Below, in pieces: positions 16,312-58,800 of a stretch of DNA of 64,000 bases. This DNA is from a bacterium. Lineage in GTDB: Bacteria; Patescibacteriota; UBA1384; XYA2-FULL-43-10; JAKAMI01. Within the stretch, counting starts at the first letter, position 1. Every line of letters starts with the position of its first letter. Where the stretch lies: the NCBI GenBank assembly GCA_021812945.1, contig JAKAMI010000001.1, positions 3,637 to 67,636 on the forward strand, in the 5' to 3' direction. The notes beneath the pieces were generated by a model. The model made no database searches. It was not told the origin of the DNA and saw only the letters and a list, made by a program, of their open reading frames with translations. A program made the position numbers and the translations under genes.

Positions 16312-18959
16312 CTAGACGTCCAAATTCTTGACCGCCTTGGCATGGGTTTGGATGAAGCGCTTGCGCGGCGGGACTTCGTCGCCCATCAGCATGGTAAATA
16401 TTTCGTCGGCTTTTTCGGCCTCTTCCACCGTCACCTGCAAAAGCACCCGATTGGCCGGATTCATAGTCGTCTGCCAGAGCTGTTCCGGATTCATTTCACC
16501 CAGACCCTTGTAGCGCTGAATACTGATCTTCCCAGGCTTTTTCTTATCCGATTTTGGATCATTGTCTTTTTCTGTGTCTCCCTCGGTTTCTTCAGTTTCT
16601 TCATCAACAATTTCTTCCGGACTTTCGGACTCTTGGACTTCGGACTGTATTTCTTCCGGCTCAAACCCGATTTTCTTTAAATAATCGTCCTTTTCCTGGT
16701 CGTTGTAGCATGGCACCTTTTCTTTGCCGTGGCTAATAATGTAGAGAGGCGGCTGGGCGATATAGATGTGGCCGTTTTCGACAATGTCGGGGAAATTGCG
16801 ATAGAAAAATGTCAAAAGTAGCGTGCGGATGTGAGCGCCGTCAACGTCGGCGTCTGTCATAATGATGATGCGGTGATAGCGAAGTTTCTTGTAGTCAATC
16901 TGGTCGCCGATACCGACTCCGACCGCCACGATTAAGGCTTTGATCTCGTCCGAGGACAACATCCGGTCCAGCCGGGCCCGTTCGACATTTAATATTTTCC
17001 CCCGCAAAGGTAATATAGCTTGAAAATTCCGATCTCGAGCTGATTTGGCACTGTTATGAACAAAAACTCCTGAAGCCAGTGCAAAGTTATGAGTGCTCGG
17101 TACTTCTATATCATAAACATCGATGTTCGTTTTTAATGACTCAATCCGCACCAATTTGAGATTACTGTGATCTATCTCGGATATGTTTGATGAAGTAATA
17201 TCAATATCAAAAGACATTAAACTTGAATCGGTTTTTAAGTCTTTCGCCTGAATAAAAGAACTGTCGCGCAACATGAACTTATGGTCCGGGGTACAAACTA
17301 TTTCTTCCCCATTATCAAGAACTAGTTTAATAACCGAGGCTTTTTTATGAGTCAACCGAGGATTTGTTATTTTTTCAATCCCTATTTTGCCACCTTGCTT
17401 TATCGTGTAACAATAATTTTGTTTCCCTTTTTTGTCTTCCTCAATAAGTTGCTTAAATGATAAATTTCTTCCGTCGGTTAGGGCTACTTTTGCATCACCT
17501 GAAAAACATCCACCGGCACTGTCGCCCTCCACAATATAGATTTCCGATCTGGAGGGATCTTTGCTGGAGCAGTCGGCCAGTTTACCCGGAAGCGTCATAC
17601 CCTCCAAAGCACCCTTGCGGATAATGGTCTCGCGGGCGGCACGAGCGGCGAGTCTGGCTTTGGCCGAAAGCGAACATTTTTCGACTATTCGGCGTCCCTC
17701 CTGTGGATTTTCTTCGAGGTAATAGGCAAAACCCTCGGCGGTGGCCGTCTCGGCGATGGAGCGGACCTCGGCGTTGCCGAGCTTGGCTTTGGTTTGGCCC
17801 TCGAACTGGGGTTCACGGAGTTTGACTGAGATAACGGCGGTTAGACCCTCCCGCACGTCGTCGCCGGAAAGCGCTTCGGAGGCGGATTTGATCCAGCCGT
17901 TTTTCTTGGCATAATCGTTGATAACCCGAGTCAATGCTGAGCGGAAGCCGGTCAGATGAGTCCCGCCGTCGGTGGTGTGAATGTTGTTGGCAAAGGAGTA
18001 AACGTGTTCTTTGAAATCGTCGGTGTAAACTACCGCGATGGTGGTTTGGACATCATCGATAATCTTTTCGTAGTAAAAAGGTTTCTCGTTGATCGGCTGG
18101 CGGTTTTTGGAGAGGCTAACGACGTAAGATTTGATCCCGCCTTCAAAATAAAAATTGTAAATTTTTGGTTTTAGAGACGGCTCTTTGGGCTGGATCGGTC
18201 TCGATTCTTTATTGTCAATATCGTCTTCTTCGATTTTTTCCCCAACAACATCGGTCTCGGTAATCTCTTCCTCGGATTCTATTTGATCGTCAAAATCTTC
18301 TTCTGCCGAATCTGTTACCCCGATCCGCTCGTCGGTTATGGTAATCCAAACTTTTTTCGTTAAATAGGCCTGCTGGCGGAGATGGTCGACGATAGTTTTG
18401 AAAGAAAATCGAATATTTTTGAAAATTTCCGGATCCGGTGAAAAGGTAATGATGGTTCCGGTACCCTCCGCAGTTCCGACCACTTTAATGTCTGAGAGCG
18501 GCTTGCCCTTCTCGTATTCCTGGGCGTAAAGTTTGCCGTCGCGTTTGACCTCGGCTCGAAGTTTGGTCGAAAGCGCATTTACCACTGAGACGCCGACACC
18601 GTGGAGACCGCCGGAGACTTTGTAGCCGCCGTCGCCAAACTTACCTCCGGCGTGGAGGATGGTCAAAACCGTTTCCAGAGCCGATTTGCCAGTCTGGCGC
18701 TGTTTGTCGACCGGAATGCCGCGGCCGTTATCGGTGATGCGTGCCGAACCGTCGGGAAGAAGCGTAACTTCGATCCGATCGCAGTAACCGGCCATCGCCT
18801 CGTCTAGGGAGTTGTCAAAAACTTCCCAGATCAAGTGATGCAGACCTTCCGGACCGGTACCGCCGATATACATTCCCGGACGTTTGCGAACCGGATCAAG
18901 CCCTTCAAGGACAGTGATCTGACTGGCATCGTATGTAGTTTTCTTTTTGTCGTCTGGCA
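16312..18959 (-). CDS. gyrB: DNA gyrase subunit B, interrupted in-frame by a mini-intein
   Basis: GyrB ATPase (HAGGKFGDGGYKVSGGLHGVGVSVVNALS), TOPRIM EGDSAGG / SAKSARDRNFQAILPLRGKILN. The likely start is MPDDKKK at 18959. The ORF-track start at 19053 reads through an upstream REP palindrome. Acidic insertions are also present. Confidence 0.93.
17053..17508 (-). other. Mini-intein (152 aa, no homing-endonuclease domain) inserted in the GyrB TOPRIM motif EGDSAGG^SAK
   Basis: N-terminal CFSGDAKVAL (block A), TxxH block B (IVCTPDHKF), C-terminal GVFVHN followed by +1 Ser. Flanking extein residues restore the conserved GyrB motif. Confidence 0.8.
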
Positions 18960-19022
18960 TATATTGAGATCCTTTCACAAACCTATTGCGCAGATAATAC
19001 CGATTTTGCCTACAAAGACAGT

Positions 19023-19063
19023 CTTTGCAAATGTGTCTAAAGACTGTCATCACTAGCCATCGG
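19023..19063. repeat. REP-like palindrome (AAAGACAGTCTTT family)
   Basis: ACAAAGACAGTCTTTGCAAATGTGTCTAAAGACTGTCATCA, upstream of gyrB. Confidence 0.75.
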
Positions 19064-27934: not shown

Positions 27935-28016
27935 ATTTCCCCTCCAAACATAACGAAGTTATTTTTGCCCCGCGAAGTCCCAAAGCGTCGGAACGAAGTG
28001 GGGCCAGTTAATTTCT

Positions 28017-28057
28017 GCAAAGACAGTCTTTACTGTATTTACAAAGACTGTCTTTAC
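28017..28057. repeat. REP-like palindrome (AAAGACAGTCTTT family)
   Basis: CAAAGACAGTCTTTACTGTATTTACAAAGACTGTCTTTAC. Confidence 0.75.
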
Positions 28058-28132
28058 TCCTCGACCTTGTTTGATTATTTGGATATTGATTATTGATATT
28101 TGTTTGTATCTTGTTTCTTGGTTATTATCCGC

Positions 28133-30807: not shown

Positions 30808-30900
30808 ATTTCAGTCATCCTGAGCTTGCGAAGGATCTACCGAAGCGGATTTGTCCGGATGATGACAGTCTTTGCAAATGCCTTTAAAGACTGTCATCAT
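30808..30900. repeat. Degenerate MITE-hairpin copy (TCATCCTGAGCTTGCGAAGGATC) fused to a REP-like palindrome
   Basis: GTCATCCTGAGCTTGCGAAGGATCTACCGAAGCGGATTTGTCCGGATGATGACAGTCTTTGCAAATGCCTTTAAAGACTGTCATCAT in a divergent intergenic region. Confidence 0.7.
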
Positions 30901-30962
30901 CCTATAGAATTTTTCAAGCGGTTTTGGCAGAGTCGGACTTATTGTGATAATATAACCGTAAG

Positions 30963-31549: not shown

Positions 31550-31599
31550 ATAAAATATGACATTATTTTCGTCATGACGAAAATAATGTCATATTTTAT
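31550..31599. terminator. Perfect 24-bp-arm palindrome, likely terminator
   Basis: TAAAATATGACATTATTTTCGTCA|TGACGAAAATAATGTCATATTTTA, followed by a T-rich run. Confidence 0.5.
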
Positions 31600-33817: not shown

Positions 33818-33866
33818 TATGCCTAAAGACAGTCTTCACACGCCTAGCAAGACTGTCTTTAGGCAT
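33818..33866. repeat. REP palindrome flanking the RAYT gene (3' side)
   Basis: TATGCCTAAAGACAGTCTTCACACGCCTAGCAAGACTGTCTTTAGGCAT. Confidence 0.85.
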
Positions 33867-34505: not shown

Positions 34506-34554
34506 TATGCCTAAAGACAGTCTTGCTAGGCGTGTGAAGACTGTCTTTAGGCGT
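34506..34554. repeat. REP palindrome flanking the RAYT gene (5' side, inverted orientation)
   Basis: TATGCCTAAAGACAGTCTTGCTAGGCGTGTGAAGACTGTCTTTAGGCGT. Confidence 0.85.
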
Positions 34555-34869: not shown

Positions 34870-35040
34870 CAAGAGCGTGGCGTCAAGTTATAAAGTTGAA
34901 AGTAGAAAGTAGAAAGTTATTGAATTAGTATTTATTCAGTCTAGTAATGGTATAATAGCTTTTTTAGACGTGATTTACTTTACGAACTTTATTAACTTTA
35001 CAACTTTATAAACTTTACAAACTTTATAATTTTAAGTAGA
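34870..35040. repeat. Iteron-like inverted arrays of TAAAGTT-type nonamers
   Basis: AGTTATAAAGTTGAAAGTAGAAAGTAGAAAGTTA ... TTTACTTTACGAACTTTATTAACTTTACAACTTTATAAACTTTACAAACTTTATAAT. Confidence 0.6.
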
Positions 35041-36391: not shown

Positions 36392-36528
36392 TATTTACCA
36401 CCGATCGGTAAGTTATAAAGTTCATAAAGTCGTAAAGTTTGTAAAGTTCGTGAAGTTGTAAGGTTCGTGAAGTGACACAACTTTCAACTTTATAACTTTT
36501 TACTTTATAACTTTACAAACTTTATAAC
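36392..36528. repeat. Iteron-like inverted arrays of GTAAAGTT/AACTTTAT nonamers
   Basis: CATAAAGTCGTAAAGTTTGTAAAGTTCGTGAAGTTGTAAGGTTCGTGAAGTG-ACACAAC-TTTCAACTTTATAACTTTTTACTTTATAACTTTACAAACTTTATAACT. Confidence 0.65.
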
Positions 36529-39500
36529 TCATTGTCCCCTCATTTTGGTCAAAAACCTCGGCACCCAGGAGAAAGAACCGGTAATGGCGTCCATAATCAT
36601 CTGGAAGAGCTGTTTCTGCTTGGGCGGAGTGATCAGCGAAAAATCATCGGAAAAAGACTGATTGGCAGACCGATCCTTTGAGGTGACTCTGGCGTGGTAA
36701 GCCGAGTTTGCCTTGAGATCGTTCAGGATAATGACGTGAGTTTGGTTGAGAGACAAGTCCTCCTTTGTTTTCGAATCGTATGTTCCGGAAACCCCTTGGC
36801 CGTATTCGACCTGGCTTGTTGCCGACTCGTCGGTCTCCCAAGAGATGATGGCCTGATATTTGATGGCATTACCCGAACCGCTGGAGGTAATCTCGCTCTT
36901 CAGATTGGAAATGACCGGCGGAGTGGTATCGGCAGTGGTGGTGAAACTTATCTGACCGGAAACCGCGGTGTTGCCGAACTTATCCGTGCCTCTGGCAGTC
37001 GCGGTGTAGCCTTGCTTGGCCACCAAGCCGATGATAGTCACCGAGTGAATGGTGGTAGAATCGGATTTGCCCTGCTGACCCTGCTGGATGGCGGTTGGCG
37101 CATTTTGATCGACAGCCCGGCCTTCAACTTGAATAGCGGCGACGGGGGAGGTGGAAGCAAATTCAACATTGGAATCGGTATTGACGTTGGTATTCCAGGC
37201 GAGGGTGGCCGAGTTGGCCGAAGTCTCAGTAGCTTTGAAATCGGAGATTATCGGCTGCGCCGGAGTGGAAAAGACATAATCGTCCGAGGTGGTAATGTTG
37301 CCGTCCGTGTCTGTGGCTTTGATGCGGAGGTGATAAATGGCGCCGTCTTTAAGCTTGTCAAGCTTAAACTTGTGCTCGGTATTTAAGGTGGTGTCGATCA
37401 GGGTTGCGCCATAGCCGGTGGAATCGCCATAGTCCAAGCTAGTGATCGAGAGTTTGGAGGTGGACCAGGAGACCAGCGCTCCGGTCTGGGTAATGTCGGA
37501 GATAGTGGTGCCGGAAATCAGAAGCAGGATCCGCTCCGGTGTGGTGAAATCCAGCACATCGGAGTAACCAGCAATCTGAATCTCGTTCTTGGAGATAACC
37601 TTAAAGTAGTATTTAGCGGCCGGATCAAGATTGTAAAGCCAGATCTCGTGATTTAGAGTCATCTTCGGATCGCCGGCGATCTTAACGACCCCGCCATTAT
37701 CCGCAGTCATATCATCTTTGGCGTGGATTGAACTGGTCGAATAGGCCACCGAGGAGTCAGCGTTCTGATCGGTATCCCAGCTGATCTTGGCGCGAACTCC
37801 TTGGTCTTGTTTCCAGCCGAAGAGCTCGACCTTGGGTTTGGCCGTGACATCGGGTGCCGAACCGGGTTGAGATGAGAGCGGGCCGGCCGGAATAGAGAGG
37901 TTGCCGGCAGTGTCTTCGGCCTGAACCTTGTAGGCGTAAGTAATGCTGGAGGAGAGGTTAATATCCAGAAAGCCGTTTTTGGTGGTGGTGTCGACCTGAG
38001 AGTAAGTTGCGCCGTCGGTCGAACGGAAAACATGATAAGTCTTGGGTACCGGCACCACGTCATCCCAGACCAACGTCAAACGATACTTATTTGTCGCTAT
38101 GGTTGACCCATCCTTGATGGCAAAGTTGGCCGGCGTGCCATACAGAGTTTTGGAGGTCTGGGTTAAATTGTTCTCAAGATCCCTAAACTTGAAGTAGATA
38201 ATGTTTTTGTTTTGCAAATCAAAGTTATTCTTTGACGTTGCGTAACTCTCCCAGGAACCGCCGGCAAAGCCGGAGTCCATCGAGATCATCATCTGGATCG
38301 GATTTGAGTCATCGGTGACGTTTAAGACCAAGTTGACCGAGCCTCCGGCCGAGGCATCGCTAACAATCGAGTTGACCAACGGGTTCTTGGAGTCCAGAGT
38401 CAACAAGCTGGAATCGGCATAAGCATTTGAGCCTTGAGCGGTGACTTTGACCCGCATCTTGAAGGTGTTGTTCAAGAATTGGCCGTCAAAATCGACTTTG
38501 GGATCAAAGTAGGCGGTGTATTGCGGCAGGCTGGCGTCACCGTTGAAGCTGCCGTTGGTCTGTCCGGATTGAGCAGGGGCCGAAGCATTGGCCCAGGAGT
38601 TGCCGCCGGAGTTAAAGTAAGCGAGACTGACTTGGCTCGGCCAACGCAGTTTATACATCACCTTGACCTTGCCCGGATTGGCCGGATCGGTGCGGTCGAG
38701 CTGGACCGCCGTTACCTCTCTGGGGGCAATGTCGGCCGGCACGGCGTCTAAGGTGATACTCTTGTCGGTTTCAAGGTAAGAGTTGTCCTGTTTTTTGTAG
38801 GCATAAGAAACTTTGTAGTAGTAGTGGTTGCCGTTGGTCAGACCGGTGTCGGTGTAGTCAGTGCGCGTGCCGGCAGTTACCGCCAGCGGGTTGGGAGTGG
38901 TAACGATCTTGCTGTAGTTGGTCGGAAAGGCGGAACAGTCGGTGGTCGGGCTTAAAACGGGGCCTGCGGCGCAACGATAAATATAGGCCTGCGGCGTCAA
39001 GCCAGTGTCGGCCGGTATGTCAAAAGGATTGGTCCAAGTCAGGGTGACTTGCTGATAACCCGGGGCGGCTTCGATCAGATCGTTGACAAGGCCGGTGTGG
39101 TCGGTGGCGGTGTGGCGCGAGCCGGGAATATGAGTGGTAACGTAGACTTTGCTCGGATTGTTGGTCGAGGCCGGAAAGATACCGGTCGAGGCCGGATTTT
39201 TCGAAGGATCGGCCGGTTCAAGCCGCGGATCGGTTTTTTTGGTTGAAGGATCGGTAGCATAAGTCGAAGTTGGATCGACACATTCTGAGGCCGAAAGACT
39301 TTGGTAGCCGCCGGTTTGGAACTTGAAGTAATTTGTCGGGGTGTTTTGCGGAGTAAAGGTATGTGCCCCGAGATCGCCGGCCGGAAACTGGAAACAGCCG
39401 GAAGAGTCGGTCGAAACGGTCTTAGTGTAAGGCAAAACCGCTTGGGCATCGGAAGAATAAAAGTAAACCATACCGGCCTTAGAAGTCGGATCGTAGCCGT

Positions 39501-42500
39501 AGTCGGTTTTGACATTGCCGAAAGCGTCGAAGGCCGTCAGGGTGACATTTTCGCTAAAAGTAGTGTCGACTTGTTTTTCGTAATTGACCGAATTTCGAGA
39601 AATGATCGGGGTGGTGGTAATGCCGAAATGGTCGATCGACTGCGGTTTGACCGTGATGGTAAAGTCGGAAAACTTGTTGCCGTTATCCGAGGTCTTGACC
39701 CGAAAACGCAGATCTGTGCCGGAAGTCACCACGTTGAAACCGCTGCCGGCAAACTGATGAACACCGTTGTCGGCGCCGGTGCCCGAAGTAAAAGTATAAT
39801 GGGTGAGATAATCGTTGGCAAAGGTAAAATTGGCCGTGGAGCTTGCCGGATTGCCCGGGGTATCCGAGCCGCGATAAAGCTCAAACCAGACTTGACCGGT
39901 AAAGTTGTCTTTGACGTTGTTGTAGGCGTCGTAGGCGGTGACGTTGGGATTGTAGGGAGCGGCGGAGAAGCCGGGGGTATCCCAGGTGAAGTTACTCATA
40001 GCAAATCTTTGGGAGGCCGTTTGCGGGTAGGAAGCTAAGCCGAAATGGTCGGTTGAAGCGGCCGTGACGAAAATATTACCAATAGCATCGTATCTACTAC
40101 CTTCGGAGTTGTGCACCACAATTGACTGATTATCCTTGGTCTTTAGAACAAAGCCGGTGCCGGGGAAAGTATGAGCCCCGTTGTCCCCTCCGGCGCCGGT
40201 CGTGAAGGTGTATTTTACAACGTCCGTATAGGGAAAAGTCGCCTGCGAGTCGGAGGAGTAAAACCAGATTTGGCCGGTCCAGTCGTTTTTGGTATTGCCG
40301 TAAACGTCTTTGACCGTGACCACGATGTCATTGGCCGGCGAGGTAAAGGGAGTGCCGGCCACGATGTTAGTCGGATAACCGGAAAGCTGGAAGGAGCCGA
40401 AACCGGCCGGCTTGACGGTGATGCCTTGCGTCGCGTCTGTCCAGCCCAGCGACGGCGTCTCGGAAACAGTGATGGTATAGGGCACGCCCACCGGATTGGG
40501 CGAGGTGTCCTTGTAAAAGAAATTGGCGGAGTTTGAACCGACGCCGATTGTCAGGGTGTTGCTCGGAACCGTGGTCAAGCAACCGCCATCAGAGTAAAAA
40601 TGGCCGGTGGCGGAGTTGGTTTGCAGCACAAAGTTTTTCGCTCCCTCGGTGGCGGTTAAGGCGACGTCCTCGTTAATGACGTTTCGAATGCGATACTCCA
40701 TAATCGCCGAGCAGAAGGTGACGGTAATGTTTTGGGCGGCGGTGGTAAAAGCGGTGTGATCGATCGGAGCCACGGTAAAGGAACGGGCGGCCGAGGCGGC
40801 AGACCAGTGCTTGGAGCCGTCAAAGGAGTCCACACCCTCGGGGTCGTAAGCATAAGCGCGATAGTAAAAGGTGTCGCCCTGATGAAGTGCGGTAGCCAAA
40901 GTCAGCACGGCATCGCGGCCCGAGGAGTAGCCGCTGGTGCCGGCGACTTTGCCGGTAGCCATATCCTGATTGGAGAAATTGGCCGTGCGGTTGCCGTCGT
41001 TTGGCGTTTGCGACACGGTCTCGTCGAAAGTCGAGACATTCTGGCTAAAGCTGGCATCGGTCGCCAGCTGCAACTTATATTGAATCCAGTCACCATCCGG
41101 ATCGGTCGAATTAAAGTGAAAAGCGATAAGTTGAGATTGGTTGATGGCGCCATCAGTCGAGGGCGCGGTAATGGTCGGAGCGCTCGGCGAGTGCTGAACT
41201 TGAATAGTGCCGTTGCCGCCGGCCGCGCCGCCACCAACACCGCAAGTACCGCCGGTGGCAGTCTTGGCGCCGGTATATGTATCAGTAGCCGGATAAATAG
41301 CTATTCGCCCTCCGCCTCCGCCGCCGCCAAAAGAGGCGCTGTTGCCGCCGTTGGCGGTAATGGTTGCGCCGGTGGTGCCGGACAATGTGCCCGAGACAAC
41401 CACTTGCACCGAGCCGCCCGAGCCGCCGCCAAAACCGGCCCCGCCATCGGTACCGTTGGCGGTGATCTTGCCGGTTGCGCCCATCGCCAAGTTGCCGGTG
41501 ACGTTCATCTTGACCATGCCACCGCCGGAGCCGGCGTTACCGGCCCCCGACTGGCCGGCGTGCCCGCCGCCCGAGCCAAGATAATTGTTGTTTGTCTGGC
41601 TGCCGTAGGCCGCGCCGCCAACTGAGCCGCCGGAAGAGTTGCCGCCGGCTCCGCCGTAACCGCCGCCCGAGCCATAGGCCCAGTTGGCCACCACGCTCCC
41701 GTGCCCGGGTCCGGCGTCTTGAGCAAAGCCGTTGCCGTCGGCCGAAACCGTCCCCGAAAGAGTCAGATTGCCCCCGACATTCAAAGTCGGCCAAGCACCC
41801 TGCGTGGGCGTGCCGGAGTTGTCCGAGAGCATCGTGAGGGAAGAATTGGAAGCTATCGTAACCGCCCCGGTAGTGGTGACGATTTGGTTTTTTGAAAGAG
41901 CAAAATTACCCTTGTTGAGGATTGAAATAGAATCAAAAGCGTATGTTGCAGTATCTGTAGATGTTTTGAGAAAAGTATACCCGGGACCAGTGTTACCGTT
42001 ATTGTTAACAATGAGTCTACCATTTGCTTCACCTGGATGTATCTCAAAAACCGTCCCTGCTGATGCATAGAAACCATTATAGGAACCAAGACTATAAGCT
42101 GAGTCAACTCCGTTATATGTCCATGAAGAATTTGCAGAAATCTTGACCCGACCACCACTTCCGGCACCGCAACCAGTCGAGTACCCATTAGCCGATATGG
42201 CCCCATTTCCCGCAAAGTTAACCGTTGTAATATTTATAGAACCACCAGCTGCACTTTGATTGTTTCCCCCATTCGCCAAAATACTATTGGTCGAGTTGGC
42301 GCTTACTGTTCCGGTGGCATTTATTGCCGCTACACCACCACCACCGGTAGAATAGCCACAAACAGCAGTCCCTCCAAGTAACGAAGGATTCGAGTAGTCA
42401 CCAAAAGCATCGCCCTGCGGGTACCCCTGGCCGCCATAACTATAATTACCAGTACCTAATAATCCTTGGGTTGAAACATCTATTTTACCGCCATTCTGCA

Positions 42501-45500
42501 GAGTCAAATTAACAAGGTTAAGTATAAGTTTGTAGCTCTCAGACGTCGTATTTGCTACATGTGACACAACACCACCAGTATCAACAGTCATATTAAAGAG
42601 CGCTCCTCCGCTAGAATCTGTAATTTTACCAGTAATACTCCCCCCACTCGGTGCCTGATACCAGCCTGTATCGCAAAGCGTCGTGCCGTCGGCTTTTTTG
42701 CAGGTCGTACCCATCTCGAGGGTGTAATTCGAAACCGTCCAGCCAGTCGCCGGAACTTTCAGAGTACCATAAACGTCAAGCACACCGCTGGTCGCGCTGC
42801 CTGTAAAAGGAGTATTGGCCGAAATATCTAGTGTTTGGCCCGTAAAGATTGCTAATCGGCCCTGGTTCTTGACAGTTATCACATCAAACACGTACGATCC
42901 ACTGTCGCTTGAGGTTTTAAGGGCTGTGTTTTGAGAAGTCGCTTGGTTCGAGTTATCAATAATAATTTCACCGTTTGCTTCCCCGGGTTTTCTGACAAAA
43001 ACCGTTCCAGCAGCCCCCACATTGCCTCCGCCCCAATTACCACCATAGGCAACAGCTGAACTAACCGAATATGTCCCGGTGGCCTCCAAAGCGATTCTTC
43101 CACCCGATCCTCCGGGGTAAGCACTGCCGTCGCTCGCAGAAACAGTACCGGTACTTGTCAGGTTTGTGGTCTTTAGCCATATGCTACCGCCGGCGCCGTT
43201 TGAGGGCGCATTGGATAAGATACTGCCACTATTTGTCACGCTGGTTGCTATAATTTTGGCTACACCTCCTCCGGCTTGGCCGCCATAGTACTGAGTACCG
43301 CCGCTACCCAAGCGGTTGGGGGAATCATAACTGCCGTATTGGCTATTGGTATATCCATAACCATCACCGCCATATGAGCCACCCCTAGAGTTCAAAGCGC
43401 CGCCGGCCGGTCCCTGAATATATCCCATACCAGAGACGTCTACTTTACCCCCAGTTTGAATAGTTAAAGATCTCAAATTAACAATAAGTTTGTACTGTTC
43501 GGTGCTTGTATTCTGAACTAAATTGTAGGCTTGGGATAATGCTCCACCACTGGCTATCGTCAGATCCACAACATTACCACCAGTCGGATCGGTTATCTTG
43601 CCATAGAGGGTTGTATTGGCCGTAGTGTCGTCCCAACCGGGATCGCATCCGCCCCCGGCATTTTTGACACAACTGGTGCCGACGCCTAGAGTATAATTGG
43701 ATACCGTATAACTGGTCGGGACTTTGATCGTACCAAAAGTAGTTAGAGACCCAGTGCCATCCCCGCCGATAGTGGTGCCCGAAGTAATATCGAAAACCTT
43801 AGAGGTTCCGTTAATATCAAGTTTTCCGCCGGAATTGAGAGTAATGGCCGTAAAAGTGCTTCCGCCCGTGGAATTTTGAACGCTGTTCGACGAGGCTCCG
43901 TTATCAACGAGTCTGAAGCCGGAAATTGTTGGCGAATCTTTGAGCTTTATTACTCCGGTAGCCTTGATAAGCCCGGTACAATAGTAGCCGATAGCGTCAG
44001 CGCCACCGCCGTAAGTATTGCAGGCGCCACCGCCGGTAATGTCAAAAGCTGAGGCGTTTACGGTTTGGCCGGAAACAATTTCCAGCCGGCTTCCCTTATT
44101 GACTGTGATTGCATCAAACGTATATACCCCTGTGTCAGTCTCTCCCATCAGGGTTGCGCCAAGATCTGAGCCGTTGTCGAGACCGGCGTTATCCAAAACT
44201 AATCGCCCATTGGTGTCCCCAGGCCGTTTCTCATAAACCGTGCCGTTACCCCCGGCATCATTCCAGCCATCAACTACCTTGCTTGCCGACTCAGTTCCGC
44301 TAAAAGACCAAACGCCCGTTGCATAAATCGCTAATCGTCCACCACCGCCCGATGACGGAGCACAACAGCCATTTGAACCGCTCCTAGTCACGACTGAACC
44401 GTTACCCGAAAAGGACGCCGAGGTTATCCAAATACTACCTCCCGAGCCTCCGCCAGAACCTGTACCCGATGCCGACATTGTTCCGTTAACCGCCACTGAA
44501 CCGGTTGAGGTGATTTTGATCGCCCCACCAGAATTACCGCCACTGCCCAAGCTTACCGGTTGTGAATAACTCCCATAAGTAGCGTGGGTAGAATTATTAG
44601 CTGATCTGCCTCCATACTCACTGGTCGTTTTTAAGCCGGGGCCGTTTGATTTGCCTTTTGCGTCAGCGTTCATATTACCGTTGGTACCAATAACAAGACT
44701 GCCTACGGCATATTCATTCCCCCGCCCGTCAGCCAAACTACCATGCAATACAGTCGTGTCTCCGTCCGAGGTCACTATACCAGAATTGATAATAAATTCG
44801 CCGGTAATATTAATCTTATACGGGTCAACGTTCTGCGACGGCTTATTTTGAAAATTAATCGTGCCGGAGTAACCGGTCTCCACATATAGGCCGCCGAGAC
44901 CATCGACAATACCGTTGCCGGAGGTGAAAGTTGTTACCGTGCAATTTTGGACCGAAGATGGGTCAAAGACAACGATGTCGCCAGCCGCCGGCGCCCCTGA
45001 AGGCGTCCAGTTGGCTGCGGTTTCCCAGTTTCCGGCTGCCGCGGCGGTCCAGCGTTTGACACTCGGGGCGTAGTTTAAATTGTAAGGGCTGGCCGTACCG
45101 GAGACAAAGACCACCGGAGAATAGGAGTTAATGCCGCTGTTTCTGTTTGTAAATATTTTCGCGGATGCGGCCACCCAAGCGAACGAACCACTTAACGTCG
45201 CATTGTGCCCACCGCTAGAGGAATCGGCAGCTAATGTTCCAGATCCTTCATCAAAATGCCACAACCCAACGGTATTGCCGTCGGTTGTAAACTGATTTAT
45301 TGGGGGGGGAAAACTAGATGTATAACGCGCGATGTTTGAGATTCTAAGTTCGTCGATTGTTCCAAAATTTTGCCCTCCATAGGCCATACTGTTGCCAAGC
45401 ACAGTAATATCATCTGTCAGCTGCATATTTGCCGTCCCAACAAGCAAGCCGTCAATATACATTTTCGTCGTCCCGGAACTGCCAACCCCAGTAAGATAAT

Positions 45501-48210
45501 GCCACCCTGAAGTTAAACTAGTTACATTATAATTCGACGTGTAGAAGTTCCCGTTATAAACCCCCAACTGGCCATCTCTTTCAACAACAATATGCTGGTT
45601 ACTTATGGTGCCCTTTACAAGTGTCCGACGACCGTCACCGGTTGTTGGCAAAGGAAATTGCACCCACGCCTCCACTGTCCAAGTGCTACCAATTACAACA
45701 TTTGATACAGTGCCAGAACCAGAACTTGGGGAATTAAAGTTTATTGCTGCATTACTGGATCCCGTTTGCGTAACAGGTGTCGGCTTCAGTGCTGCCTGGG
45801 CGATCAGGTTGTTGCCGTTATCGGTGGTGACGGCCACGGCCACGCCGAAAGTGCCGGCAGAGCCGATTTTTTCCGCATACTTGATATTGTAAGAATTGAC
45901 CCCGACGTATTCCGAGTAGTAAAGGTAGATGGCATCGTTTAAGCCCAGGCCGAGACTGGGATTTTTGTCATTGGCGTGGCTGGCGCCGGTGGTGACGGCG
46001 GTTGAGGCGGCGTCCCAGCTGGCGGCGGCGTTGGCACATTTGCGGTATTTGATCCCGACCGAGTTGTCTTTCCAGGCCAGATGGAGGTAGTGATCGCTGG
46101 TTTCCTGCCCGATCGAGAACTCTTGGTTTAGGGCGGTTCCGACATCGGAGGCGATGGTCTCGTTGGCCCAGCCGGCCGTTTGGAAAGTGCCGGCAGTGGC
46201 GTAGTTCCACCTGAGAGAAGCATTGGCGAAGTTGTAGATAACAGCCGGATTATCATTCCAGAGAGTGAGGGCGGGGTAAGTGGCGGCATTGGTGTTGACG
46301 GCGGCCGATAATGTTGACGCCGCACCCCAAGTCGAGCCGTCGGCGGCAGTTGAGGCTTTGGCTTTGATAGTGTAGTTGGTGGCATCATAATACCGATAAG
46401 CGACAAAGATGGTGCCGGAAGATGTGACCGCAACGGCGGGGAAAGCCTGGGAAGTGCCGGCGCTCTCGACGGTTCTTTCGGTGCCGGTGGAGGTGATGGC
46501 GTGGGTAGCGGTGTCATAGGTCATCTGGCGGTAGAAGATGTAAGAGTTGGTGCCATTGTTGGAGTAGGCCAGATGGATCTTGTTGTCGGCGGTAATCCAA
46601 GAAGAGAAGCCGTAGTCATCGGTTAGAGTCGAGGCAAAGATTTGGGTGCCGGTGGCGCTCCAGGTGTTGCCGTGGTCGGAAGAGATTTTATATGAGAGGC
46701 CGTTACCGTCGGAGTAGATGTTGACCATATCCCCGTTGGTCGCCTCCAGTAGCGTCCGGTCTTTGGAGAAGGAGTTGGGGTTGGTGGTGGTGGAGGTAGC
46801 GACGGTGACGGTGGGGTCAATGGTTAGAGGATACTCAGGCGAGCCAAGACAGTCTTTCGGGGCATTGGCAAAGACTGTCTGGTTGCCGCTGCCTGAAAGA
46901 CTGTTGTCGCTGCCCGGAGACGACAGTCTTTGCCGGTAACAGGCATTGGTTTGAGCCAGCCAGTTTGGATCGATCTCATAGCGAGCTAGGTTGGCGCTTT
47001 GGTCTAGGGTTAGTTTAATCTTGTCGTCGAAATGATTGCCGGTTTTATCGGTTAAGGTCGCTTTGAGTAGGGTGAAGAGTCCCTCCTGAGTTTGTTGGTC
47101 TTTTAGCACATAGGAGCTGTCCGGGTTAGAGATGATACTTAAGTTGCTTAAATTACTTAAGTTAAAATCAATGGATGAAATGCTTCCAAGAGCTTTGGGT
47201 GAGTTTAGAACAAGGTCTTCTTTGAGCTTACCCGGGCTGACTTGGTAGTTGGCGGTAATCTCGGGGTTGATCTCGAGGGAGTACTTTTGCTTGGCTCCGT
47301 CGTTTTCGCGGATCTTGACACCGGAGGCAACCTCTTTCTTGGTTTTGACGTCATCCGATGTAACAGCTTTTGGCACATTGGGAGTATTTGTCTCGTTGGT
47401 CAGATTAGTCCCGTTGGTCGGGTTGGAACTGTCCGATGGAACATCAGCGGCTTGAGCAGTTTCAGCGAAGACAGCTTCAGCCAAGACAGTCTTTTTAGCT
47501 TCAGCAAAGACAGTCTTGTTGCTCCCCGAAAGACTGTTATCACTGCCCGAAGATGACAGTCTTTGCCGGTTTAAGGCAACCTGATCTTTGGGGACTAGAA
47601 GATCGAAACCGACTTTTCTAACCTCACCGTCTTTGTTCTGGGTAGCCACCGAGACCGAGGCATTTCTGGTTGTACGATCGGAGAGGTTGACCGTTAGCTG
47701 GTCGGAAGAACCGGTGATCGCGGCCGAGTCGTCAACTTTACCTTTGGCTTTTTCCTGAACATTGGGAATGTCCGCTCGCGAGCCGACAACAGCCACCGAA
47801 ACCGATTTAAGTCCGGAGAAAGGCTGATTGGCTTTTGTCTCCGAAAACGAGGAGGCATACAAGCTCAGCCCGAACACAAAAGACAGGCAGACCAAAGCCA
47901 AAGCTGAAATGTTTATCTTGGAGGCGTTGGGGTTTAAGTGCCAGAGGTAGTACCACCGCCACTTCATCCTGAGATTGTTGTGGACCGGGATAAAGAATCG
48001 AAAGCTAGTGCGAGTCGAGTTTTGAATGGACATCAACTGATTATTGAGCTTGGATTCGACATCCTGGCCACTGAACGATTCCGGTAATTTACCGGAAAGT
48101 TTGGCTGACCGGATAATTTTTTGCACCAGAAAAACGGCCGCCCCTTTAGGGAAAGTCAGAATTTTATGGATGATGTACCGGATTTTTAACATATAACCAC
48201 TAATAATCAC
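36529..48210 (-). CDS. Giant (3,893 aa) surface/adhesin-like protein. N-terminal membrane anchor, LamG-like lectin, BNR/Asp-box, long Gly/Ser-rich parallel beta-helix repeats, multiple FN3-like domains.
   Basis: Single uninterrupted ORF. BNR motif SDHGNTWS, LamG-like [19 protein letters not shown], extensive GGSGG/SGGSGGRI repeats, FN3-like C-terminal modules. Contains two in-frame REP-derived segments. Confidence 0.8.
46848..46935. repeat. REP-derived segment embedded in-frame in the giant protein gene
   Basis: CAAGACAGTCTTTCGGGGCATTGGCAAAGACTGTCTGG...GAAAGACTGTTGTCGCTGCCCGGAGACGACAGTCTTTGCC. Encodes [29 protein letters not shown]. Confidence 0.65.
47465..47575. repeat. REP-derived segment embedded in-frame in the giant protein gene (second copy)
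   Basis: GAAGACAGCTTCAGCCAAGACAGTCTTTTTAGCTTCAGCAAAGACAGTCTTG...GAAAGACTGTTATCACTGCCCGAAGATGACAGTCTTTGCC. Encodes [36 protein letters not shown]. Confidence 0.65.
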
Positions 48211-48221
48211 TAAAACTCAGT

Positions 48222-48260
48222 GATAACAGTCATTTTAAATGCAGTAATGACTGTCATCTT
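48222..48260. repeat. REP-like palindrome variant (AACAGTCATTTT...TAATGACTGTCAT) upstream of the giant gene
   Basis: GTGATAACAGTCATTTTAAATGCAGTAATGACTGTCATC. Confidence 0.6.
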
Positions 48261-48859
48261 TTTTGAATATATTTTTTGAGCAAATCAGCCAAATCGGAAG
48301 CCGAGGGCACCGCCGAGACCCCTTGCCGCAAAATCTCGATCGCCCGATCGGTCTTATTATCATTGTAATACATCACCGCCAGATTCATATACGAATAGGT
48401 TAGATGCGGATCGAGTCCGATGGCTTGTTTGTAGGCTGATTCGGCTTTTTCGGTTTGATTCTGATCCCGATAGATGTTGCCAAGATTGTTATAAATCATT
48501 GCGATTGACGACTTATTGGCTTTAGGGGACTGGGAAGCGATCGCGTAATACTTTTCGGAGCCGGCATAATCTTTTAAGCCGTAGTAGGCCATGGCTAGGC
48601 TGTAAACGGTGTTGTAATCGTTTGGTCTGAGCTCGTTTGCCTGCAACAATTTATCGACGCTTTCCTGATAGTTGCGGTTTGAAAGCGCTTCCTGGCCTTG
48701 GTTGAATAATTCGGTCGCCCGCTTGTTCCGCTTCTCGTCAGAATTTTTCTTCGATTTGGGCAACAGAATAAACAGCAGGACCAAAACAACCGCCAAAACA
48801 ATCAGCGCAATCAAAAGTTTGAACCAGCGTTTTTTTCTAATGTTTTTTGGATTGGTCAT
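48254..48859 (-). CDS. TPR-repeat protein with N-terminal TM anchor
   Basis: Three or more TPR units (YSLAMAYYGLKDYAGSEKYY, NLGNIYRDQNQTEKAESAYKQAI, MNLAVMYYNDNKTDRAIEIL). Confidence 0.75.
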   Translation of the reverse strand: MTNPKNIRKKRWFKLLIALIVLAVVLVLLFILLPKSKKNSDEKRNKRATELFNQGQEALSNRNYQESVDKLLQANELRPNDYNTVYSLAMAYYGLKDYAGSEKYYAIASQSPKANKSSIAMIYNNLGNIYRDQNQTEKAESAYKQAIGLDPHLTYSYMNLAVMYYNDNKTDRAIEILRQGVSAVPSASDLADLLKKYIQKR

Positions 48860-51332: not shown

Positions 51333-51389
51333 CTTATCCCCTCCGCCTTAGAACTTAAGTCTGTAGCGTTTTCAACTAAGATATGTCAT

Positions 51390-51475
51390 CCTGAGCTAAT
51401 TTCTGTCATCCTGAGCCTGCGAAGGATCTATTCCATAGACAAAGATTCTTCACTGCATTCAGAATGACAGTCTAA
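51390..51475. repeat. Degenerate MITE-hairpin copy (left boundary of GC-rich islet)
   Basis: ATGTCATCCTGAGCTAATTTCTGTCATCCTGAGCCTGCGAAGGATCTATTCCATAGACAAAGATTCTTCACTGCATTCAGAATGACAGTCT. Confidence 0.65.
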
Positions 51476-52146: not shown

Positions 52147-52288
52147 ATTAGTTTGTAGCAAAATGTGGCTTGTTCCGTCATCCTTAAGCTGATGTCTGTG
52201 ATCCTTAAGCTTGTTCTGTCATCCTGAGCTTGCGAAGGATCTCTACTTATGGAATAGATCCTTCGCAAGCTCAGGATGACAAAATACG
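52147..52288. repeat. MITE-like element with perfect 24-bp hairpin arms (right boundary of GC-rich islet)
   Basis: ATTAGTTTGTAGCAAAATGTGGCTTGTTC...GTCATCCTGAGCTTGCGAAGGATC-TCTACTTATGGAATA-GATCCTTCGCAAGCTCAGGATGAC. Near-identical to 56385..56485. Confidence 0.85.
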
Positions 52289-55441: not shown

Positions 55442-55474
55442 TAAACTGCTTAAGTGAACCGGGTAATAGCCCTA

Positions 55475-55641
55475 CCGTGTAAAGCACGGAATGATCAAAA
55501 TAATATTCAATGATCAAGGATCAGTTAATGTTCAATTATCAATGATCAAGCAAGTACTTGAAAGTTGAAACTTGATATTTAATTGAAAATTGATATTTGA
55601 AACTTGAAAATTAATCTTTGATACTTCCGCGCTTTGCGCGG
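55475..55641 (+). repeat. rnpB insertion 1 (167 bp) at the P3 position
   Basis: Begins CCGTGTAAAGCACGG, AT-rich TGATCAA/TTGAAA core, ends CCGCGCTTTGCGCGG. The two termini are imperfect inverted repeats (14/15 pairs as RNA). Confidence 0.85.
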
Positions 55642-55738
55642 CTGGGGAGGAAAGTCCGGGCACCAAAGAGTATGGCACCAATGAAAGTTGGCTGGCGTAA
55701 TGCCACGGGAATAGTGCAACAGAAAACATACCGCCGAA

Positions 55739-55912
55739 CCGTGTAAAGCACGGAATGATCAAAATAATATTCAATGGTCAATGATCAATGATCAGTTAAT
55801 ATCCAATTATCAATAATCAATTTAACTATTGAAAATTGAGAATTGATACTTAATTGAAAATTGACACTTGAAACTTGAAAATTAATCTTTGATACTTCCG
55901 CGCTTTGCGCGG
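55739..55912 (+). repeat. rnpB insertion 2 (174 bp) at the P9 position
   Basis: Same termini and core as insertion 1. Replaces the P9 hairpin between ...ACCGCCGAAC and UGGUAAGG. Confidence 0.85.
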
Positions 55913-56076
55913 TGGTAAGGTTGAAATCGTAGTGTAAGAGACTACGCGTTTGATGGGAAACTATCAACTGTGAAAACCCTGCCTGGTGCAAGTTGGGTGG
56001 GCCCTTTATCATCATTTGCGGCTTCTCGTCGCGATGACCTCGGGTCCCAACGCTTAGATAGATTATTGCCGCCGCG

Positions 56077-56250
56077 CCGTGTAAAGCACGGAATGATCAA
56101 AACAATGTTCAAGGATCAATGGTCAATGATCAGTTAATATCCAATTATCAATGATCAAGCGAGTACTTGAAAATTGAGACTTGATATTTAATTGAAAATT
56201 GATATTTGAAACTTGAAAATTTATCTTTGATACTTCCGCGCTTTGCGCGG
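56077..56250 (+). repeat. rnpB insertion 3 (174 bp) in the linker between the P2 and P4 3' strands
   Basis: Same termini and core. Flanked by ...UUAUUGCCGCCGCG and CGAGGUACAGAACCCGG. Confidence 0.85.
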
Positions 56251-56345
56251 CGAGGTACAGAACCCGGCTTATAGGTTCGTTTAAGCACAGAGCTACATTT
56301 AGGCCTCCGTAACTTTATGGCCTGTCCCCTTCGGGGGAATGTGGC

Positions 56346-56384: not shown

Positions 56385-56485
56385 ATTAGTTTGTAGCGAA
56401 ATGTAGCTTGTTCTGTCATCCTGAGCTTGCGAAGGATCTATTCTATAGGTAGAGATCCTTCGCAAGCTCAGGATGACAAAATATC
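56385..56485. repeat. MITE-like element with perfect 24-bp hairpin arms (second full copy)
   Basis: ATTAGTTTGTAGCGAAATGTAGCTTGTTCTGTCATCCTGAGCTTGCGAAGGATC-TATTCTATAGGTAGA-GATCCTTCGCAAGCTCAGGATGAC. Confidence 0.85.
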
Positions 56486-58769: not shown

Positions 58770-58800
58770 AACTTTATAACTTTACAAACTTTATAACTTT
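58770..58800. repeat. TAAAGTT-nonamer repeat filling the entire ruvA-ruvB spacer
   Basis: AACTTTATAACTTTACAAACTTTATAACTTT. Shared with 36490-36528 and 34990-35030. Confidence 0.7.

Follow-up and report, generated by a model that had tools for sequence, protein, structure and literature searches.

Palindromic mobile repeats that sit in-frame within open reading frames (ORFs) and are translated at tolerant positions are reportedly known from Rickettsia, where these Rickettsia palindromic elements (RPEs) are said to have been described by Ogata et al. in 2000; the longer RPE-1 reportedly has ~100-150 bp per single element. Repetitive extragenic palindromic (REP) sequences, together with the REPINs, are proposed to be mobilized via single-stranded DNA (PMC2817692, PMC3116915, PMC3479197). 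REPs located wholly within ORFs have also been found (Di Nocera et al. 2013, BMC Genomics 14:522, PMC3733652), more than half of them as dimers or in groups that encode 20-30 aa. Here we describe a 64,000-nt stretch (the window, to which all positions refer unless another contig is named) of a Candidatus Saccharibacteria (TM7; Patescibacteria) genome, in which a family of REP hairpins occurs together with a gene for a REP-associated tyrosine transposase (RAYT) and in which two clusters of the same repeat lie inside a single giant ORF. We consider it probable that a REP/RAYT system spread these hairpins and that REP dimers landed twice in the giant gene, where they would be translated as passenger linkers. 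The general phenomenon has been known since 2000 and 2013 and its current understanding is unchanged by our results: in-frame intragenic REPs are already described, and what is new is the lineage and phylum, the untagged class of REP with nested palindromes, and the target gene.

Counting both strands of the window, we found the 9-mer AAGACTGTC exactly matched 16 times, compared with 0.27 expected, and none of 100 shuffles reached this number. With up to one mismatch allowed, the 11-mer core AAGACAGTCTT has 26 matches compared with 0.93 expected, making it the commonest 11-mer of the window. Ten of the 16 exact 9-mer copies make five extragenic inverted pairs (at 19.0, 28.0, 30.9, 33.8 and 34.5 kb), and the remaining six are inside the giant ORF. 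Together with a degenerate sixth extragenic pair at 48.2 kb, the census amounts to five to six extragenic copies plus two in-gene clusters in 64 kb, and no single REP core was found in the window outside hairpin pairs, the giant gene aside. The REP unit is a 36-50-nt hairpin with a loop of 11-12 nt, whose arms consist of the near-palindromic 13-mer AAAGAC(A/T)GTCTTT (AAAGACAGTCTTT and its complement AAAGACTGTCTTT), inverted and spaced 23-25 nt apart. Complementarity extends past the core in some copies, with ATGCCT/AGGCAT and GGATGATG/CATCATCC as examples.

The six extragenic hairpins fold with z-scores of about -1.9 to -9.3 relative to shuffled controls. When these copies are aligned, 7 of the 18 stem pairs show compensatory double changes, and 84% of the stem cells are paired, compared with 29-44% when the partner column is slid. 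No consistent GTAG or CGTC tag is present in their aligned flanks, with CTAC seen in one copy only. An Rfam scan of the window returned only tmRNA and RNase P, with no family over the REP hairpins, and a scan of 2.9 million viral contigs for the hairpin gave 2 isolated matches, which corresponds to background. The window also contains a 50-nt perfect AT-rich palindrome at 31550-31599 (ATAAAATATGACATTATTTTCGTCA joined to TGACGAAAATAATGTCATATTTTAT), between genes for a histidine phosphatase and an aldehyde dehydrogenase. Despite a weak covariance match (24.4 bits), we rejected it as a member of the REP family and regard it as a separate element.

The RAYT gene (Table 1) lies 13 kb from the in-gene REP clusters. 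Its product scores 80.4 bits against the NCBIfam model for REP-associated tyrosine transposases (NF047646, cut-off 80) and aligns with E. coli TnpA_REP (PDB 4ER8; E 2.4e-7), placing HFH opposite HMH and DYI opposite DYI, which correspond to the His-x-His motif and the catalytic Tyr. The two hairpins on either side of the gene are mutual reverse complements, loop included, and flank it in inverted orientation; such an arrangement around a Y1 gene is a RAYT hallmark. Because of the hairpins and the RAYT gene that they flank, the repeat qualifies as a true element of the REP/REPIN type with a cognate transposase. The exact RAYT protein was found on seven contigs of the same species, at the same locus at every place shown. 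The nearest homologs are ~54% identical, several of them listed as ‘Patescibacteria group bacterium’ or ‘RayT’. Two of these were inspected at their loci, one on metagenome contigs from ENA and JGI (P0017; L025/L026) and the other in a metagenome-assembled genome labeled Patescibacteria (P0022; L027). Both genes have inverted flanking hairpins with the core AAGGAC(A/T)GTCCTT, which is the core of the window with one compensatory base-pair change. In these homologs, besides the flanking hairpins, the REP core AAAGGAC(A/T)GTCCTTT also occurs within the 3' part of the coding sequence (10486-10507 of L025 and 2220-2237 of L027), unlike in the window RAYT, which has no internal copy.

As in the described REP/RAYT systems (E. 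coli TnpA_REP, 4ER8; Nunvar 2010, PMC2817692; Messing 2012, PMC3479197; Bertels & Rainey 2011, PMC3116915), the palindromes are short and, within the 64 kb of the window, over-represented and almost all extragenic, and the Y1/HUH gene is flanked by two inverted repeats at one locus per recovered contig. As in REPINs (PMC3116915), the hairpin consists of two inverted core copies. The unit found inside the giant gene equals two such hairpins. The system differs from the known ones in its Saccharibacteria/Patescibacteria host, in its near-perfect palindromic core and in the lack of a GTAG or CGTC tag; in the library searched, we found no literature linking RAYT, REP or REPIN with Saccharibacteria or Patescibacteria. 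IS200/IS605 elements share the Y1 HUH fold and chemistry (PF01797) as well as subterminal hairpins recognized as single-stranded DNA. In contrast to these elements, the RAYT of the window reaches only 22.9 bits against the IS200 model (cut-off 55), the two hairpins beside it form an inverted pair and do not share one orientation, and the gene is at one locus with the hairpins dispersed alone.

The giant ORF occupies 36529-48210 on the minus strand and encodes 3,893 aa as listed, although its true start codon is likely M82 at 47967, directly before a hydrophobic anchor that is conserved in homologs. After the anchor come a pair of small N-terminal domains, then one propeller-like domain and a long region of Gly-rich and Ig/fn3-like repeats, and the N-terminal part of this architecture is kept in two homologs (P0002/L019 and L011). 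Apart from Pur_ac_phosph_N and a weak fn3 close to the C-terminus, Pfam identified no domain. The protein had been called an adhesin in a preliminary description of this DNA; no annotation tool that we used returned such a label, and a role in adhesion or host attachment is a conjecture.

The preliminary description had also placed two REP-core segments in this ORF without loss of the reading frame, and both were found: six exact 9-mer copies and additional partial ones fall into two clusters (segments 1 and 2 in Table 1), where 0.27 copies would be expected in the entire window, and the frame is uninterrupted through both. The peptides that it quoted are exact and begin at aa 215 and aa 426, and each cluster has 4-5 cores at a spacing of 20-26 nt. 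As a refinement of its boundaries, the inserted units are best set at 47473-47577 (segment 1) and 46834-46944 (segment 2). On the plus strand, the cores start at 46846, 46871, 46897 and 46922 in the cluster of segment 2, and at 47463 (degenerate), 47483, 47507, 47530 and 47555 in the other.

To compare the segments with the intergenic consensus, we trained a covariance model on the six extragenic hairpins alone and searched the whole window with filters turned off. The best matches outside the training set are those in the giant gene, one at 47500-47547 (27.8 bits, E 1.6e-5) and the other at 46842-46888 (26.7 bits, E 3.5e-5), in agreement with the proposed relationship; both are slightly stronger in the gene-sense orientation. 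Segment 2 holds a canonical REP hairpin at 46846-46881, the loop of which (GCCAATGCCCCG in gene sense) is similar to those of extragenic copies, for example GCAAATGCCTTT. The in-gene cores are translated as QRLS, NSLS, KTVF/KTVL, QTVF and KDCL. Because all three frames and both orientations are thus used in reading the core, what the in-gene and extragenic copies share is a DNA element and not a peptide motif.

The two segments are also homologous to each other at the DNA level, aligning over ~105 nt with identity in 84 of the 114 alignment columns, a score that none of 500 shuffles attained. This homology raises the possibility of a single REP-dimer insertion that was later copied within the gene by ectopic recombination or gene conversion. 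The units, ~80% identical over this length, have the same orientation, the same frame and ~10 nt of non-core 5' flank (TGCCTnnnAC) in common, five of the six differences in their first 48 nt are synonymous, and the window has no extragenic copy of the composite unit. On the other hand, the second copy is not in tandem but 633 nt away, precisely at a domain junction, for which there is no obvious mechanism save transposition, and the homologous 3' parts of the units are read in different frames (KTVLAEA versus KDCLGS). The shared frame is explained in part by survivorship, as the unit is open in only 3 to 4 of its six frames, and the shared flank could itself belong to the mobile unit. We consider copying within the gene to be a credible yet unlikely alternative to two separate landings of a REP dimer.

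Homologs of the giant protein were obtained from an exhaustive search of representative proteins using the N-terminal 394 aa, which yielded few relatives, and from genome and metagenome scans for DNA loci. A word-indexed protein search with the N-terminal region gave no match, even though an identical protein (P0001) and a ~50% identical one (P0002, which is also the protein of contig L019) exist; negative results of word-indexed searches are unreliable for proteins of this length. Five homologs (P0002/L019, L011/L020, L021, L022 and the more distant P0004) run uninterrupted from ‘..Y.IDP.FV..AK’ to ‘YPLYLDPTVT’, and the giant protein has exactly 37 extra residues at this point, corresponding to segment 2. 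The alignment gap is a clean 37 columns in P0002 and L011, with the same uninterrupted junction in L021, L022 and P0004, and the flanking residues align without gaps (NWLAQTN followed by YPL versus EFVKTAK followed by YPL). The linker that contains segment 1 varies in length and sequence among all homologs. Its DNA has no REP core in L019, L011, L021 or L022, which have 9-17 unrelated residues there, fewer than in the window. In 171 kb of DNA from relatives, we found no REP hairpin and one AGACAGTCT, isolated and in coding sequence. A 7-nt GTCTTTC in the linker of L011 was considered as a REP relic and rejected, as it is within chance expectation.

The locations of the segments were judged from blocks of conservation in this alignment, which put segment 2 exactly where two domains meet and segment 1 within a linker of variable length, in favor of the earlier interpretation. 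An AlphaFold prediction from the single sequence of aa 125-520 has a mean pLDDT (predicted local distance difference test) of 32.8 and is uninformative on disorder. The final VFAE of segment 1 (47461-47472) is probably ancestral and not REP-derived, because homologs have ‘LFSKAEAQE’ or ‘IFQAEAED’ aligned with ‘VFAETAQA’ of the window at the end of this segment. The earlier interpretation of both segments as coding sequence derived from REP insertion is therefore supported by their absence from homologs, the covariance matches and the RAYT, except for this last unit.

The same comparison bears on whether the repeats might be ancestral coding repeats, a DNA-uptake signal or the operator of a regulator, and not mobile-element insertions at all. 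DNA uptake has been ascribed to Patescibacteria, the 13-mer core has an operator-like palindromic form, and homologs share with the window a short ‘F..AEA’ motif in the linker of segment 1. These readings are contradicted by our results, and we rejected all three, including an uptake sequence of the DUS/USS type, as scarcely tenable. Ancestral repeats disagree with the lack of segment 2 in the homologs, with the missing cores at segment 1 and with a core whose translation uses three frames and two orientations. For an uptake signal or operator, one would not expect a core that occurs outside the gene only in hairpin pairs with covarying outer stems, without single copies, or pairs that flank the RAYT gene in inverted orientation, which is the signature of REP. 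Conservation of the segments in distant orthologs free of REPs, by which they would count as ancestral, was not found: five homologs lack segment 2 exactly, and four have no REP core at segment 1.

Within the species, both segments are present at full length in all of the 14 contig pieces collected from several assemblies and samples, which are 99.86-100% identical to the window. The segment regions themselves are 100% identical, with a single mismatch in one contig, and neither presence/absence polymorphism nor a deletion variant was seen among these pieces. The idea that REP insertion provides a route to variation in this protein is a conjecture. We also considered that the in-gene clusters could be maintained as DNA or RNA elements, either as targets for in-frame loss of the 633 nt (211 codons) between them or as mRNA hairpins that modulate the 11.7-kb gene. 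The clusters are direct repeats separated by a multiple of three, their stems are nearly perfect with one compensatory change (an A-T to G-C difference between the two copies of the first in-gene hairpin), and segment 2 has a favorable RNA fold (-48 kcal/mol, z = -4.3). Segment 1 folds as shuffled sequence predicts (z = -1.9), however, and the uniformly full-length form in the 14 pieces (at least 99.86% identity) does not suggest that loss takes place. Maintenance of this kind is very unlikely in our judgment. Similarly improbable is the specific proposal that the REP dimers are kept as paired sites for RAYT or homologous recombination, by which the 211-codon domain between them would be removed or restored in-frame. 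If it were true, the pair would act as a REP-driven switch with which this epibiont remodels a giant surface protein near the membrane.

The explanation that we favor, two landings of a REP dimer, would involve the following steps. The genome would carry an active or recently active REP/RAYT system, in which the hairpin was dispersed between genes by the RAYT, an HUH/Y1 single-strand DNA transposase. A composite unit of ~105-111 nt made of two adjacent hairpins would have been mobilized by the RAYT, presumably via single-stranded DNA, and would have landed twice in the gene of the giant surface protein, once in a variable linker and once at an exact domain junction. The survival of both copies could be due to a length that keeps the frame, a core without stop codons and sites that tolerate a Ser/Gly/Asn-rich peptide; the REP core is stop-free in all six frames. 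Both segments would then be translated as tolerated passenger linker peptides, with presumably neutral effect on the protein.

Several observations weigh against this explanation. In each in-gene unit, the first hairpin (AAAGACTGTC...ACAGTCTTT, central bases ordered T...A) lacks an extragenic counterpart in the window and scores only 8.6 bits with the covariance model. One segment could be a copy of the other, given the frame, orientation and 5' flank that they share. The VFAE unit resembles the two preceding REP-containing units of segment 1, part of which may have grown by local slippage beside it. The RAYT passes the cut-off of its family model only narrowly (80.4 versus 80). Finally, the closest available homolog of the giant protein is only ~50% identical, which leaves the insertions undatable, and a pair of filled and empty sites within one species was not found.

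Table 1. REP hairpins, RAYT gene and in-gene REP segments of the 64,000-nt window
Feature	Position	Strand	Description
REP hairpin	19008-19057		Dispersed, extragenic; between ankyrin-repeat gene and gyrB
REP hairpin	28013-28061		Dispersed, extragenic; between glycosyltransferase gene and DUF4012 gene
REP hairpin	30855-30904		Dispersed, between divergent genes; stem extends to 23 bp; -28.4 kcal/mol, z = -9.3
REP hairpin	33819-33866		Abuts RAYT stop codon; -27.3 kcal/mol, z = -8.5; covariance 60.2 bits
RAYT gene, 189 aa	33866-34435	-	Y1 (HUH) transposase; PF01797, E 1.4e-16
REP hairpin	34507-34554		72 nt upstream of RAYT start; -31.8 kcal/mol, z = -8.7; covariance 59.3 bits
Segment 2, in-frame insertion, 111 nt / 37 aa	46834-46944	-	aa 423-459; junction of second N-terminal domain and propeller; lineage-specific
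Segment 1, REP-core array	47473-47577	-	aa 212-246; in length-variable linker
Degenerate REP hairpin, core ATAACAGTCATT / AATGACTGTCAT	48216-48264		Between TPR gene and giant ORF; covariance 55.3 bits, member of training set

Other repeats and insertions are present in the same window. A second, unrelated palindromic family (GTCATCCTGAGCTTGCGAAGGATCT - loop - AGATCCTTCGCAAGCTCAGGATGAC) forms ~65-nt hairpins at 52218-52280 and 56415-56477, with partial copies near 30814 and at 51385-51405, and no associated transposase was seen for it in the window. In the region 55460-56287, the RNase P RNA match (RF00010, 124 bits with a gathering score of 100) spans 681 nt compared with the 367-nt model and holds two insertions, one of ~150-160 nt in the printed alignment and the other of 155 positions that the alignment does not display. 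It is overlapped by three direct repeats of ~182 nt (55460-55641, 55731-55912 and 56069-56250), which are 72-89% identical to the reference copy and each carry a P1-P3-like stretch, ‘CUUUGAUACUUCCGCGCUUUGCGCGG’. In the product of gyrB (16312-19053, minus strand), the GyrB domain is separated from Toprim by an intein (PF14890 Intein_splicing, aa 525-667). Short AT-rich motifs (ACTTTATAACT and relatives that include ACTTTACAA and ACTTTCTAC) form intergenic tandem repeats at 34886, at 36411-36530, just downstream of the giant ORF stop, and at 58771-58800.

Compared with the intragenic REPs of Di Nocera et al. (PMC3733652), more than half of which are likewise dimers or grouped, those described here are untagged and located in a giant surface protein of an epibiont lineage with reduced genomes, while the former belong to the GTAG- and CGTC-tagged superfamilies and in many cases lie in genes for DNA repair or replication. 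The RPEs of Rickettsia similarly insert in-frame as palindromes that are read as an extra peptide, a likeness limited to mechanism and outcome. They differ in that no RAYT link was evident for them in the literature consulted, whereas the cognate transposase of the window's repeat is identifiable. With the transposase, the extragenic and in-gene copies and homologs with empty sites all available together, the locus would represent a clear and internally controlled case of a mobile palindrome absorbed into coding sequence. For annotation, it provides an origin for both low-complexity inserts of this giant orphan protein and warns that such inserts may reflect DNA-level events and not protein motifs. 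It also extends the reach of REP/RAYT systems to Saccharibacteria and Patescibacteria, whose genomes are very small, a setting in which one might expect few selfish repeats. The compensatory change of one base pair in the core among RAYT homologs hints at co-evolution between enzyme and repeat, which could be studied across the phylum.

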